A stretch of DNA of 64,000 bases. Source: Parcubacteria group bacterium. GTDB lineage: Bacteria > Patescibacteriota > Minisyncoccia > Moranbacterales > UBA2206. The stretch is from NCBI GenBank assembly GCA_041664225.1, contig JBAYLE010000001.1:132939-196938 (forward strand). The letters run 5' to 3'. A model generated the notes under the pieces. The model was given only the letters and a program-made list of their open reading frames with translations. It did not search any database and was not told where the DNA came from. Shown one piece after another: positions 1,519 to 6,818 of this stretch (the first letter of the stretch is position 1; each line of letters opens with the position of its first letter). Position numbers and translations under genes: made by a program.

Positions 1519-2607
1519 TTATAAAATTGGACGGAACAGTTTTATCACAGCCAATATCAGATAATCGATAGCTTTCATTTTATATTTTTGCGGGCGAAAC
1601 AGCTCTGCTTCGCTTTTCCACTCGTCAACCGTTTTTCGCAGTTCTGTGATAAGGTCATTTTCTTCAAAAAATATGCCAGCCTCGGCATTTAAGTTGAAAG
1701 ACAGGTAGTCGATATTCTGAGAACCGACCAGGCCGATTTCTTCATCAATGAGCATGATTTTGGCGTGGTTCATAACGGGCGTCAGGAAAAAATTGATGCC
1801 GGTGGGTGAAAGGTTGTACATATAGCGATGGTTGATTCTGTCCACGAAAGGCAAGTCGGTTTTTTTGGGAATAATAATTTCCACTTTGATATTTTTTTTC
1901 ACTGCATTATCCAGTAGGGCAATCAGCCAGCGCGGGGGAGCGAAGTAGGGAGTGACGATACAAATGCTTTTTTTGGCTTGATAAATTTTTTGGCGGTATT
2001 GGTCTTTGAGGGAGTGGATATTTCGAAAGGGCGAGTATTCAACAAGCCAAAAGCGGAATTTAGCGGAAAATAATTTTTCTCGGTATTTTAATATTCTCTT
2101 ATCTTTTCCGCCAGCCATGGCATAGGTGTAGGCGAAAGATTTGATAATTCTTTTGACAACTCGCCCATGAAGGCGCAGCTGCAAATCTTTCCATTGGGAA
2201 AAACTTTTACCGATATTTACCCCTCCTAAAAAGGCCAGCCTCTCATCAACAATCAAAATCTTACGATGGATATGGCGCAACCAATGGCTAAAAAAAATGA
2301 ATTCCACCCCCGCTTCGTGCAGGGCTTTGACGGATTCTTTTTTAAGATCGGAACTGCCAAAAGCGTCGGCGACAATGATAATCTGAACGCCTTCTCGAGC
2401 TTTTTGTTTAAGCTTGCCGATAAAATCATGGCTTCCAGACGTGTCATCCAGAAAAATATACATCTCGATGTAGATGGATTTTTTAGCCTGGTCAATGGCC
2501 TCCAACATCGCGTCCCAGGCCTTCCAAGAAGTTTTATAAAGTCTATATTTCATTGTTTCAAGTATACAATACAATTTTTGTTTTAGCATGTTTCTTGAAA
2601 AATACAA
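1519..2607 (-). CDS. cls: phospholipase D family protein / cardiolipin synthase-like (two HKD motifs)
   Basis: Two HxKxxxxD motifs (HRKILIVDERLAFLGGVNIG and HAKIMLIDEEIGLVGSQNID). The track start is a TTG; the true start may be an internal Met. Confidence 0.8.
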   Translation of the reverse strand: MYFSRNMLKQKLYCILETMKYRLYKTSWKAWDAMLEAIDQAKKSIYIEMYIFLDDTSGSHDFIGKLKQKAREGVQIIIVADAFGSSDLKKESVKALHEAGVEFIFFSHWLRHIHRKILIVDERLAFLGGVNIGKSFSQWKDLQLRLHGRVVKRIIKSFAYTYAMAGGKDKRILKYREKLFSAKFRFWLVEYSPFRNIHSLKDQYRQKIYQAKKSICIVTPYFAPPRWLIALLDNAVKKNIKVEIIIPKKTDLPFVDRINHRYMYNLSPTGINFFLTPVMNHAKIMLIDEEIGLVGSQNIDYLSFNLNAEAGIFFEENDLITELRKTVDEWKSEAELFRPQKYKMKAIDYLILAVIKLFRPIL

Positions 2608-2645
2608 AGAGACACCGTGGTGGTGCCTTTAAAATTCTGCACAAA

Positions 2646-2785
2646 GTTGGGGAGGAGGGATTTTCGCCTTGTCCGCCACGGCGGACTCGTTGTCCTGGGC
2701 AGCGCCAAATGCTCGTTCGCGTTTGTCGGCGTTCGACCGCGCCGCGGCGGCTGGTCTCACTGCTGCCCATTCGAATCCCTCTCAT
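2646..2785. other. GC-rich (~65-70% GC) structured element bounded by inverted copies of the tRNA-Gln 3' end; candidate ncRNA or integration remnant
   Basis: 2646-2662 (GTTGGGGAGGAGGGATT) is identical to 2832-2848, the tRNA-Gln 3' end. 2770-2783 (TTCGAATCCCTCTC) repeats the tRNA T-loop and 3' stem in inverted orientation. The two ends can form a ~9-bp closing helix around internal GC-rich hairpins (GUCCGCC-ACG-GCGGAC; GGGCAGC...GCUGCCC). Confidence 0.3.
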
Positions 2786-2817
2786 AAGAAAAATAAAAAA
2801 GCACTCTTGCGAGCACT
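2786..2817 (-). terminator. Rho-independent terminator downstream of tRNA-Gln (minus strand)
   Basis: Minus-strand hairpin AGUGCUC-GCAA-GAGUGCU (7 bp including G-U pairs, GNRA loop) followed by UUUUUUAUUUUUU. The plus-strand version is much weaker. Confidence 0.5.
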
Positions 2818-2832
2818 TTTTTTATTTTCCTG

Positions 2833-2904
2833 TTGGGGAGGAGGGATTCGAACCCCCGCATGCTAGGACCAAAACCTAGTGCCTTACCGCTTGGCTACTC
2901 CCCA
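2833..2904 (-). tRNA. tRNA-Gln (anticodon TTG)
   Basis: Manual cloverleaf: acceptor UGGGGAG/CUCCCCA, anticodon stem CUAGG/CCUAG with loop UUUUGGU (anticodon UUG), T-arm GGGGG-UUCGAAU-CCCUC, discriminator A. CCA is not encoded. Confidence 0.9.
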
Positions 2905-2909
2905 AAGTA

Positions 2910-4598
2910 TTATTCTTTCACGACCTTGCCACCCATAATTTCCATGGCTGAAGCAAGGAGGGAATTTTGTTCTCCTGGTTTTTCTTCCTTTTTCACTTCT
3001 GTTTTGATGCCAGCTTCTTTATTGGTGACAGTTTTGAGTGTTATTTTCGACCCAAGAATTTTACCAAAAACATCTTCAACCGTCAATCGATTAGCTGGGT
3101 CGTTAAGTTTTTGTTTGTAAAAATCATATGGTGTGGCTAGGGTTATGACATTATTTTCAGCGGAAACAACCTGGCAGCCAAAAAGTAGGGCTTGCAAAGA
3201 ATGGTTAAGTGGCTTAACGGCTTCCAAAATTTTATTCCAATTGCTCTGAACATCATAAGTCAAAATTTGCTTATGATTTTTGTCTGTCGTTTTATTTTCT
3301 GGCTGCTCCATTGTTTCTTGTTTGGCCGAGTCTTTTGAATCTTGGTCATTGTTCGCCGCGGCGGATTGAATTTGTTTAGGATTTAGCCCCGAGTACTCGG
3401 GATCGGATTTAGGATTTTGTATGTTGATATCATTATTTGCAACGCTTTTATTGGATTGTTGCATGTTATATGCTTCATGTTTCATGATAGGAAAGGTATG
3501 CGTTGCTTTGATAATGGCAATTTCCAATGGCAGTTGCGGCAGCATAGATGAAGAAATTTTTCTTTGCGCGTCCATAAAAAGATTAATAGCGATGATTATT
3601 TTTTGTAGCTCGGTCTTTTTTGATTGTTCAATCATTTTTTCAATCTGCTCACTGGTAATTTCATACGCGAAAGAAGACCTGAGTTCCGGGCTGATCTTGA
3701 GGAGCATCAGTTGGCGCAGATAATTGACGAGGGATTTATTGAACACCTCCAGATCATAGCCATCATTCAAAAGATTATTTATTTTTTGAATAGCACCGGT
3801 CGAATCTTGATTGACAATCATCTCAGCAATTTCAAAGGCTTGTGTGCGGTCGGTGGTGCCCAAAATTTCCTCAACTTCTTTGATGGTGATGTTTTTATCT
3901 TCCAGGGCAATAACTTGTCCGAGCAAGGACTCCGCGTCGCGCATTCCGCCTTCGGCACTGAGCGCAATCATTTCCAATGAAGCCACATCAATTTTAATTT
4001 TTTCGTTTTTAGTGATGAGGATCAGTTTTTCGATAATATTTTGTATAGGCAGGCGTGCGAAATCAAAGCGCTGGCAGCGACTCAGGATGGTTTCCGGAAC
4101 TTTGTGGATTTCAGTGGTGGCTAGGATAAAAATAACGTGAGAAGGCGGTTCTTCCAAGGTTTTTAGAAGTGCGTTAAAGGCTCCGGCCGAAAGCATATGT
4201 ACTTCATCGATGATATAGACTTTGTATTTCAACGATGTCGGCGGCATGGCGATTGTCTCGCGCAATTCGCGTATATTGTCCACGCCAGTGTTGGAAGCGG
4301 CGTCGATCTCGATTATGTCTAAGGACCTGCCATCATTTATCATTTTGCAGACTGGGCAAGTTTCACAAGTGATTGCGTCTTTGGTATGCTCGCAGTTTAC
4401 GGTTTTGGCAAAAATCCGGGCGATGGAAGTTTTACCGGTTCCGCGCGGTCCTGTGAAAAGATAGGCTTGACCGACACGATTATTTTTTATGGCATTGGTA
4501 AGTGTTTGAACAATATGGCGCTGTCCAATTATTTCGGAGAAATTTCGGGGGCGATATTTACGGTAAAGGGTTGTTGATTCCATAGTCTTAGATTTCAA
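2910..4598 (-). CDS. dnaX: DNA polymerase III subunit gamma/tau
   Basis: N-terminus LYRKYRPRNFSEIIGQ, Walker A GPRGTGKTS, zinc module CETCPVC, and the SRC motif (ILSRCQRF). Confidence 0.95.
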   Translation of the reverse strand: MKSKTMESTTLYRKYRPRNFSEIIGQRHIVQTLTNAIKNNRVGQAYLFTGPRGTGKTSIARIFAKTVNCEHTKDAITCETCPVCKMINDGRSLDIIEIDAASNTGVDNIRELRETIAMPPTSLKYKVYIIDEVHMLSAGAFNALLKTLEEPPSHVIFILATTEIHKVPETILSRCQRFDFARLPIQNIIEKLILITKNEKIKIDVASLEMIALSAEGGMRDAESLLGQVIALEDKNITIKEVEEILGTTDRTQAFEIAEMIVNQDSTGAIQKINNLLNDGYDLEVFNKSLVNYLRQLMLLKISPELRSSFAYEITSEQIEKMIEQSKKTELQKIIIAINLFMDAQRKISSSMLPQLPLEIAIIKATHTFPIMKHEAYNMQQSNKSVANNDINIQNPKSDPEYSGLNPKQIQSAAANNDQDSKDSAKQETMEQPENKTTDKNHKQILTYDVQSNWNKILEAVKPLNHSLQALLFGCQVVSAENNVITLATPYDFYKQKLNDPANRLTVEDVFGKILGSKITLKTVTNKEAGIKTEVKKEEKPGEQNSLLASAMEIMGGKVVKE

Positions 4599-4705: not shown

Positions 4706-5359
4706 TTATTTTTTGAAAACTATAAACTTATAGCCCAGGAAATTCCAAGCTAGTCCGATTATGCTGCCGGCCATGGCTCCTATTAGTGCCCATTGGTCTA
4801 TCCCTAATCCTCCGAACGGATGGATTGCACGGAATACATAAGAGGCCACAATAACATTGATAAGGAATCCAATAATACTAACCACGAAAAATTGTAGAAA
4901 CTCGGTGCTGGCTTTTTTTTCTGAATCAGCTGAAAATGTCCAATATTTGTTCCAATAATAACTGTTGACATTGGCAAGTATGAATGAAACGCTTTTATAG
5001 AATGAATAGGCTGTAAGGCCAACGAAGACGACGACAGAAGATTCAATCTGAAAGAGCGCTCTAAAAATAAAGATCAATAAAGCTAGAATTCCCAGATCAA
5101 CCAGCGTATTAAGCACTCCAATGATTGCAAACTTAGCTATTTGCCAGATAACTGCAATTTTTTTAGAGATATAATAAGCAATTACCAGCCCGAAGGGTGT
5201 AGCGATAATAAAAAAAGGCACAGTTATAAGGGCAAAACGATCAAAAAGTTCAGGCTTGGCTGCTTTCAAAACAGGCAGAAACAAGAGTCCGATTAAGAGG
5301 CCGGCGAGCACGCTGAGGGCGTAATCCTTTTTTGTGACTACGGTTGCATTTGCCTCCAT
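4706..5359 (-). CDS. GtrA family membrane protein (polysaccharide synthesis/translocation associated)
   Basis: The C-terminal half (GVLNTLVDLGILALL...NSYYWNKYWTF...) resembles the GtrA-like fold; multiple TM helices. Confidence 0.5.
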   Translation of the reverse strand: MEANATVVTKKDYALSVLAGLLIGLLFLPVLKAAKPELFDRFALITVPFFIIATPFGLVIAYYISKKIAVIWQIAKFAIIGVLNTLVDLGILALLIFIFRALFQIESSVVVFVGLTAYSFYKSVSFILANVNSYYWNKYWTFSADSEKKASTEFLQFFVVSIIGFLINVIVASYVFRAIHPFGGLGIDQWALIGAMAGSIIGLAWNFLGYKFIVFKK

Positions 5360-6293: not shown

Positions 6294-6818
6294 ATGACAG
6301 AAATATTATTGACCACTTTGATCATCATGGTTGTCCTCGCGATTACAATTCCTACACTGTATGGTTTTATGATTGGAGCGCCGATTCTTTTTTCGCCGAA
6401 AAAAGTTATCAAAGAAGTTTCAAGGGTTGTCGAATTCAGGAGGGGAGAAAATTTTTATGATTTGGGCATGGGCAGCGGCAGGTCTCTGATTGCTGCCGAT
6501 AAATTAAATCTGAATGTTACAGGTTTCGAATTGTCTCCTGTTATATATTGGCTTGCAAAATGCAATTTGTTTTTTAGAGGAGTAAAAAAAGCTAATCTAT
6601 GTCTGCGTAATTTTTACAGTCAGGATTTGTCTCAAGCGGATATAGTTTTTTGTTTTTTGACTCCGAAGGCGATGGAAAGATTAAGACCGAAATTTGAAAA
6701 GGAATTGAAGATCGGAACTCGTGTAATTTCTTATGCTTTCAGAATAAATGGTTGGGAGGAATATCAGATTCTGGATTCCGTTCCCCCTGGCAAAATATAT
6801 ATTTATGTGATGGAATAA
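6294..6818 (+). CDS. class I SAM-dependent methyltransferase with N-terminal TM helix
   Basis: Motif I DLGMGSGRSLIAA (GxGxG) after an N-terminal hydrophobic helix; 174 aa. Confidence 0.55.
   Translation: MTEILLTTLIIMVVLAITIPTLYGFMIGAPILFSPKKVIKEVSRVVEFRRGENFYDLGMGSGRSLIAADKLNLNVTGFELSPVIYWLAKCNLFFRGVKKANLCLRNFYSQDLSQADIVFCFLTPKAMERLRPKFEKELKIGTRVISYAFRINGWEEYQILDSVPPGKIYIYVME

Follow-up and report, generated by a model that had tools for sequence, protein, structure and literature searches.

Introduction

[quoted passage not shown] The unit also contains a 29-aa 'protamine-like' open reading frame (ORF), tpr. The rtT RNA has been known since 1991; its function is unsettled, and it is regarded as specific to enterobacterial tRNA-Tyr operons. 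Another kind of RNA derived from E. coli tRNA operons, of the 3'ETS-leuZ type, consists of short Hfq-bound sponges cut from operon spacers or trailers. Published work describes the rtT RNA as arising incidentally when the tyrT operon is processed and considers a role in the stringent response possible (PMC2965389, PMC3318445, bioRxiv 10.1101/2024.07.17.603846). In Klebsiella, RtT RNAs have been annotated beside tRNA-Tyr and are expressed (PMC4147364), and rttR is missing from some E. coli strains (PMC3318445).

We analyzed a 64-kb stretch of DNA with a GC content of 40.9% (hereafter, the window), in which a GC-rich block lies downstream of a tRNA-Gln gene. At the sequence level, this block resembles RtT in every structural respect that we tested and, judged by the covariance model, is not a member of RF00391, the Rfam family of RtT. 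We consider it rather probable that the block, at positions 2646–2785, is an RtT-like tRNA-trailer element on the minus strand, which is the strand of the tRNA-Gln gene. Below, we document its architecture, the recurrence of this architecture in other lineages, and the conservation of the copies found in Nitrospira.

Layout of the Locus

Read along the minus strand, the order at the locus is dnaX, tRNA-Gln, a terminator-like hairpin (T1), the block, a second terminator-like hairpin (T2), and cls (Table 1). The tRNA-Gln gene starts 5 nt after the stop codon of dnaX. By our reading of the sequence, the stem of T1 includes two G·U pairs on the minus strand, which correspond to A·C mismatches on the plus strand. 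In the left arm of the block, 12 nt (2770–2781) are the exact reverse complement of the T-loop and the T-stem 3' strand of the tRNA. The right arm begins 169 nt past the tRNA end, with a repeat period of 186 nt; within it, AAUCCCUC pairs with the left arm and CUCCCCAAC remains as a 3' tail. T2 follows 17 nt past the element, upstream of the cls promoter region. The promoter and terminator scan found no promoter for the element on either strand.

Table 1. Features of the dnaX–cls locus in the window, listed in minus-strand order.
Feature	Position	Strand	Remarks
dnaX	4598–2910	minus	Gene order at the locus
tRNA-Gln(UUG)	2832–2904	minus	ARAGORN and Rfam; no CCA encoded
Spacer between tRNA-Gln and element	2786–2831	minus	Contains terminator-like hairpin T1 and a U-run
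T1, terminator-like hairpin	2822–2795	minus	Terminator scan; fold −18.3 kcal/mol
GC-rich block	2785–2646	minus	Left arm, core, and right arm
Left arm, AUGAGAGGGAUUCGAA (minus-strand reading)	2770–2785	minus	Begins 50 nt past the tRNA end
Core, 107 nt, 0.68 GC	2663–2769	minus	Predicted long stem GGGCAGC/GCUGCCC around two hairpins, then GUCCGCC-GUG-GCGGAC
Right arm, AAUCCCUCCUCCCCAAC (minus-strand reading)	2646–2662	minus	Exact copy of the final 17 nt of the tRNA-Gln gene
T2, terminator-like hairpin with U-rich tail	Hairpin 2628–2610; feature 2600–2628	minus	Terminator scan
cls, PLD-type cardiolipin synthase gene	Starts at 2553	minus	After T2

An arginine-rich ORF of 75 codons runs over the block on the minus strand (2558–2785), starting with ATGAGA just ahead of the left arm, and recalls the tpr ORF of the E. 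coli RtT unit. As no ATG is present at the corresponding place in the Nitrospira and Eubacteriaceae copies described below, this ORF is probably a by-product of the GC-rich sequence.

Repeats, Composition, and Folding

The first-pass annotation had described a GC-rich, structured block bounded by a direct and an inverted copy of the tRNA-Gln 3' end, and this observation is real. The 17-nt direct repeat (2646–2662 and 2832–2848, GTTGGGGAGGAGGGATT) is exact, with 0.24 matches expected in the whole window at up to three mismatches. The inverted copy turned out to be shorter than first described: it is exact over 12 nt (2770–2781, TTCGAATCCCTC, against 2841–2852) and not over 14 nt (2770–2783), and some of this match carries little weight, TTCGAA being self-complementary. 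The ends of the block form a helix of 8 bp (2655–2662 with 2774–2781), with two to three further pairs beyond a bulge, in agreement with the closing helix of about 9 bp proposed earlier.

The 100 nt at 2664–2763 have a GC content of 0.69, which is the maximum of the 64 kb and upholds the description of the block as GC-rich; the second-highest peak of the window, at about 19.2 kb, falls inside an ORF. The GC content of the 107-nt core was 0.68, compared to 0.59 for the tRNA. All hairpins named in the annotation are present; folding alone does not set the block apart, as z-scores of −1.7 to −2.5 against dinucleotide shuffles, for either strand, are not clearly beyond chance at such a GC content. 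The fold energies of the two strands were −58.1 and −60.9 kcal/mol, with no strand preferred. In the window copy, the stems are perfectly Watson–Crick paired and there is one zero-loop palindrome, CGCCGCGGCG.

The block sequence is identical in two further assemblies, one from JGI and one from ENA, and is therefore not an artefact of a single assembly. The annotation had been unable to match it to SRP RNA, tmRNA, RNase P RNA, or a known riboswitch. An Rfam search matched only the tRNA here, at the gathering score as well as, over 2450–3000, at E ≤ 10. ARAGORN and Rfam also ruled out that the block holds a tmRNA or a second, degenerate tRNA.

Comparison with the RtT RNA of E. coli

Behind tyrV of E. 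coli K-12, GGGGAAGGAT is located at +59 and is the reverse complement of the T-loop end, the T-stem 3' strand, and the first acceptor bases; AATCCTTCCCCCACCACCA is located at +159, with a period of 178 nt. RF00391 matches four E. coli units, arranged in tandem, at 133–138 bits. Its consensus includes a closing helix as in the build found in the window, an unpaired ccaCCACCA tail, and a multi-helix GC-rich core, and the annotated 3' end of the rtT RNA falls at the CCA of the first unit.

The element in the window likewise comes immediately after a tRNA gene and shares its strand. It ends in an exact copy of 17 nt from the 3' end of that tRNA (19 nt in E. coli), and the direct copy begins at the AAT of the T-loop in both cases. 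The closing helix involves a 5' segment with complementarity to the 3' strand of the T-stem and to the first bases of the acceptor, an unpaired 3' tail of 8–9 nt is left over, and the core is again GC-rich, about 100 nt long, and composed of several helices, with a period of 186 nt vs. 178 nt in E. coli. Presence among close relatives is patchy both for the element in the window and for E. coli rttR (PMC3318445).

Several characteristics separate the two. The partner in the window is tRNA-Gln(UUG), on the same strand in the orientation of the copy, rather than tRNA-Tyr, and the host is a bacterium of the candidate phyla radiation rather than an enterobacterium. A single unit is present in the window, whereas the E. 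coli units are in tandem. In addition, the spacer in the window has a terminator-like hairpin, the left arm copies the whole T-loop as well, and no CCA is encoded. The core is unalignable, and RF00391 matched the window neither at the gathering score (45 bits) nor, over 2450–3000, at E ≤ 10. Like the RNAs of the 3'ETS-leuZ type, the element would be a by-product of tRNA-operon transcription released by tRNA processing enzymes; unlike it, those RNAs have no copy of a tRNA 3' end and no closing helix built from one.

Recurrence of the Build behind Other tRNA Genes

We estimated the background rate of duplicated tRNA ends by taking the final 32 nt of each of 49 tRNA predictions (approximately 45 distinct genes) and looking for copies of it up to 450 nt away. 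A tRNA was counted as having both copies when its own 3' region recurred downstream in inverted orientation over 12 nt or more and in direct orientation over 16 nt or more. Both copies were found in four independent lineages, within a small sample skewed toward the surroundings of dnaX, from which almost all loci had been taken: the window, two Nitrospira loci with tRNA-Ser (L033 and L046), and a locus of Eubacteriaceae (a Firmicute), also with tRNA-Ser (L077). Duplicate assemblies (L084 and L085) repeat the case of the window.

Table 2. Position of the tRNA-derived copies and length of the core in five lineages (nt).
Locus	Inverted copy	Direct copy	Period	Core
Window, tRNA-Gln	+50	+169	186	107
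L033 (Nitrospira), tRNA-Ser	+74	+190	206	100
L046 (Nitrospira), tRNA-Ser	+66	+184	200	101
L077 (Eubacteriaceae), tRNA-Ser	+58	+187	204	112
E. coli, tyrV	+59	+159	178	90

The shared build (Table 2) consists of an inverted T-arm copy at 50–74 nt, a folded GC-rich core of 90–112 nt, and a direct 3'-end copy at 159–190 nt. The inverted copy is antisense to the T-loop, the 3' strand of the T-stem, and the first bases of the acceptor; it pairs with the direct copy as a closing helix, and 8–9 nt are left as an acceptor-type 3' tail. The arms match the adjoining tRNA in every lineage, and the GC content of the core exceeds that of the locus in five of five. A terminator-like hairpin is present in the spacer between tRNA and element in the window and in L077. 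Aligning the lineages left the closing helix alone in common, with no shared core fold and the cores of all five unalignable, and the class thus rests on its build and not on demonstrated homology. No mobile genes were found flanking the L077 copy.

The two Nitrospira loci with the build share three conserved islands, namely tRNA-Ser, the element, and the SRP RNA, while the spacers between them are unalignable. Within the element, three pairs are fully compensatory, all in one hairpin, and changes from G·U to G–C slightly favor the tRNA strand (41 vs. 39 pairs; −62.8 vs. −58.7 kcal/mol). In two further Nitrospira loci (L067 and L079), tRNA-Ser is separated from the SRP RNA by about 95 nt, without an element. 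The conservation of the Nitrospira copies between unalignable spacers, together with their compensatory changes, is comparative evidence that the build is functional.

Weak Rfam matches to sX4 and to plastid families on the Nitrospira and Eubacteriaceae loci were rejected as driven by tRNA-Ser itself. The matches to sX4, a Xanthomonas sRNA, scored 25–27 bits (E about 1e-3; L033:3408–3589 and L077:1086–1271) and cover tRNA-Ser together with the trailer sequence that precedes the left arm. Since the sX4 model pairs CCCCCC of the tRNA with a downstream GGGGGG, Xanthomonas may hold a related arrangement.

Two other loci are of interest for the sequences that follow their tRNA genes. In Candidatus Uhrbacteria of the candidate phyla radiation (L019:5765–6100), dnaX and tRNA-Gln are followed by two tandem units of about 82 nt. 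Both units open with CGGACAGGGAT, which is antisense to the 3' strand of the T-stem and the beginning of the acceptor, and both close with an incomplete direct copy that has ATCCCTG, or a sequence resembling it, at its beginning (ATCCCTGG, then ATGCCTGG). These units may be related to the build in Table 2 in a shorter and degenerate form. In a member of Nitrospiraceae (L039:3485–3570), a long near-perfect hairpin starts within the CGCCA 3' end of tRNA-Ser (CGCCATTCGACTCGCAGCAAGC ... GCTTGCTGCGAGTCGAATGGCG), a different mode of pairing a tRNA 3' end with its trailer.

The Locus in Relatives

Syntenic contigs of relatives were fetched via homologues of DnaX and cls. The DnaX of the window is 100% identical to an NCBI protein labelled 'Parcubacteria group bacterium', and its next relatives are Moranbacteria-like. 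A search of genome contigs with DnaX yielded only relatives with identities of at most 51% over the best segment and at most 38% over the full length. L082, with a DnaX 83% identical to that of the window, has the order GtrA, dnaX, terminator, tRNA-Gln, cls. Its tRNA-Gln (4037–4111) matches that of the window at 100% over 75 nt and has the opposite orientation with respect to dnaX and cls; neither the GC-rich block nor the duplicated 17-mer is present in this contig. The tRNA-Gln of L087 (DnaX 85%; 2571–2643) is 92% identical to that of the window and inverted as in L082. No tRNA follows dnaX in L083, L094/L095, and L096 (DnaX 73–75%), and in the contig with the closest cls (89%) only 102 nt separate dnaX and cls. 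L082 and L097 become homologous to the window again from 2589 onward, within the promoter region of cls; ahead of the cls start codon, they share only about the last 36 nt with it, and T2 is absent.

In L081 (DnaX 87%), tRNA-Gln is oriented as in the window and is directly followed by the gene of a 524-aa large serine recombinase. This region (L081:4716–6806) encodes Resolvase, Recombinase, and Zn_ribbon_recom domains on the opposite strand and runs into the tRNA-Gln 3' end. A 135-nt inverted repeat with 98% identity (4800–4934 and 6577–6711) flanks the recombinase gene, duplicating its last ~45 codons on the far side, where they are followed by a different C-terminal tail. The region could be an invertible or integrated element at tRNA-Gln.

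The block was absent from relatives at 83–87% DnaX identity, and the element of the window is a singleton. Relatives without the block exist, but none of them shows the empty-site arrangement tRNA-Gln, T2, cls. Taken together, these arrangements indicate that the block is lineage-specific and that the locus is highly variable. The tRNA-Gln gene itself seems to flip or move here, being inverted in L082 and L087 and missing in the more distant relatives; a simple inversion between repeats did not reproduce the arrangement of L082.

The terminator hairpin of dnaX in L083 (4787–4803, GTCTGCCGTGGCGGAC) matches a hairpin of the window core (2671–2687, GTCCGCCGTGGCGGAC) at 94% over 17 nt, on the same strand relative to dnaX; this match may be chance or may hint at the origin of part of the core. 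A Logan assembly with an identical DnaX (L086, 100%) is uninformative on the element: its contig stops 30 nt into tRNA-Gln, as would be expected if another genome in the sample had the same tRNA sequence.

Searches for Other Copies and for Mobile Genes

No second copy of the 107-nt core was detected in the window or in the 88 sequences compared. Against phage and plasmid collections, BLAST with the core returned chance matches only, in high-GC organisms. When two exact 19-mers of the core were compared to viral contigs, the result was nothing or one chance match, and the 17-mer of the tRNA 3' end matched a tRNA-Tyr and one chance site in the same kind of contigs. A core 19-mer had three matches in metagenome contigs, a set that does not include the source contig and is thus a weak negative. 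All three were at the 5' end of a CDP-alcohol phosphatidyltransferase-like gene on contigs with a GC content of 55–59%, and we judged them to be chance. The concatenated six-frame translation of the block yielded nothing at E ≤ 10 among 5.8 billion protein clusters, which speaks against the block being a piece of a known gene and against related elements having been annotated as spurious ORFs.

A Pfam scan of 880–23583 identified housekeeping families only, with no integrase, recombinase, or other mobile gene or fragment thereof. According to the gene calls of the duplicate assembly L084, only ribosomal protein genes lie between the left side of the locus and the window start. No homologue of the L081 serine recombinase was found anywhere in the window, and a link between the block and that recombinase was dropped.

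Alternative Explanations

The first-pass annotation had read the duplicated tRNA 3' end as a footprint of site-specific integration, a claim that our results do not support. We consider it unlikely that the block is a DNA-level scar of integration or other recombination at the tRNA-Gln 3' end, with the 17-nt repeat as an att core and the 169 nt as a remnant in which nothing is functional now. As in att duplications, an exact direct repeat of the tRNA 3' end, with copies 186 nt apart, flanks an insert, runs from the T-loop to the exact conserved end of the gene, and leaves the tRNA intact; such a repeat is what a crossover in the T-loop would be expected to leave where a tRNA gene serves as an integration site. 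The locus is moreover a rearrangement hot-spot, as judged from the inverted tRNA-Gln in L082 and L087 and its absence from L083, L094, and L096; the large serine recombinase gene of L081 abuts the tRNA-Gln 3' end; and the block is absent from all relatives and has a foreign-looking GC content. The GC content of the element, above that of the tRNAs, also speaks against the RtT-like reading, as the element could be foreign DNA. Against a scar, there is no integrase, remnant, cargo, or foreign gene in or beside the repeats, either in the Pfam scan or in the six-frame search, no homologue of the L081 recombinase in the window, and no empty site recovered from the relatives, and the repeats are only 169 nt apart. 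Integration does not leave an inverted T-arm copy, and a scar explains neither this copy nor a spacing matched in four other, unrelated lineages. The equivalent block in Nitrospira is conserved with compensatory changes, and the E. coli equivalent is a known transcript in tandem units. As a caution, a duplicated tRNA 3' end beside a tRNA gene does not by itself prove integration.

The arms might instead belong to a small DNA element and fold as a single-stranded DNA hairpin that mimics the double-stranded tRNA target, with a recombinase acting in trans to insert or maintain it, which we regard as quite improbable. Analogues of such a folded-hairpin site are integron attC and the folded attP of CTX-type phages, in which, by analogy, two inverted arms about 60–140 nt apart fold to mimic a double-stranded target. 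The order of inverted arm, about 100 nt, and direct arm fused to the chromosomal flank would be one of the junctions expected from IMEX and integron mechanisms; the arms always match the neighboring tRNA, the stems in the window are perfectly Watson–Crick paired up to and including the zero-loop palindrome, and presence varies among relatives. In contrast to attC and CTX attP(+), the arms are derived from the tRNA rather than from a fixed consensus, and no linked recombinase was found in any of the five lineages. Only a single copy per genome region was seen, with no second copy of the core, the RNA-type substitutions from G·U to G–C in the Nitrospira copies point to pairing at the RNA level, and the E. 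coli unit is known as RNA. A regulatory 5' leader of cls, which the annotation had also offered, or a plus-strand small RNA ended by T1 is very improbable. In favor of such a reading, cls follows the block on the same strand; T1, bordered on either side by A- and T-runs, could terminate transcription of the plus strand; and the hairpin CAAAUGC/GCGUUUG has a G·U pair on the plus strand only. The leader is rejected, as T2 is a minus-strand terminator located between the element and cls, and conservation with L082 and L097 begins only in the cls promoter region, at 2589, the cls homologues of these two contigs keeping the promoter-proximal 36 nt without such a block; the block was thus neither continuous with a cls transcript nor conserved upstream of cls homologues. 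A plus-strand RNA is countered by the two A·C mismatches in the T1 stem on that strand, by a scan without a plus-strand promoter, and by the E. coli equivalent being read on the tRNA strand. The small structured ncRNA that the annotation had listed as a further option fits best, given that other tRNA genes are followed by the build too and that the RtT RNA of E. coli is its counterpart.

Proposed Working and Implications

As an RtT-like trailer RNA, the element would be transcribed by read-through of T1 from dnaX and tRNA-Gln, or from an unrecognized promoter, and transcription would end at T2. Because T1 is fairly strong and has a U-run, read-through may be low. We infer the strand, transcription, processing, and any function of the element in the window; for transcription from the minus strand, we draw on the E. 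coli precedent, the weak strand signal in Nitrospira, and T1 and T2 both being minus-strand terminators. The RNA would close on itself through its 5' antisense segment (T-loop, T-stem 3' strand, and first acceptor bases) and its 3' copy of the tRNA end, leaving an acceptor-strand tail of 8–9 nt. Since its 3' end is that of a tRNA, it would presumably be trimmed and given CCA by tRNA 3'-maturation enzymes.

The left arm is also able to pair with the real tRNA 3' region over 12 perfect bp, and this pairing might affect the folding or maturation of the upstream pre-tRNA or titrate enzymes that act on tRNA 3' ends. In a modelled read-through transcript (2596–2904, minus strand), the minimum-energy fold pairs the tRNA 5' acceptor strand with the downstream copy of the acceptor 3' strand, and the real tRNA 3' region and the left arm pair via an 83-nt imperfect palindrome centered on T1. 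The pairings in this model suggest an effect on pre-tRNA folding or 3' maturation, which is speculation.

The main interest of the locus is the hint that RNAs of the RtT kind are far more widespread than RF00391 suggests. A tentative and somewhat unlikely extension is that RtT exemplifies a widespread class of trailer RNAs, present from Proteobacteria to Nitrospirota, Firmicutes, and the candidate phyla radiation, in which every member corresponds to the tRNA that it follows (Tyr, Ser, or Gln). Members of the class would originate when a tRNA 3' end is duplicated both directly and in inverted form, and would act on 3'-end maturation or pre-tRNA folding, for example, as a decoy or timer. If the build truly recurs behind tRNA-Gln and tRNA-Ser in distant phyla, the questions become how the units are made and what they do to tRNA maturation or the stringent response, and both could then be addressed by comparative genomics, beyond one E. 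coli locus.
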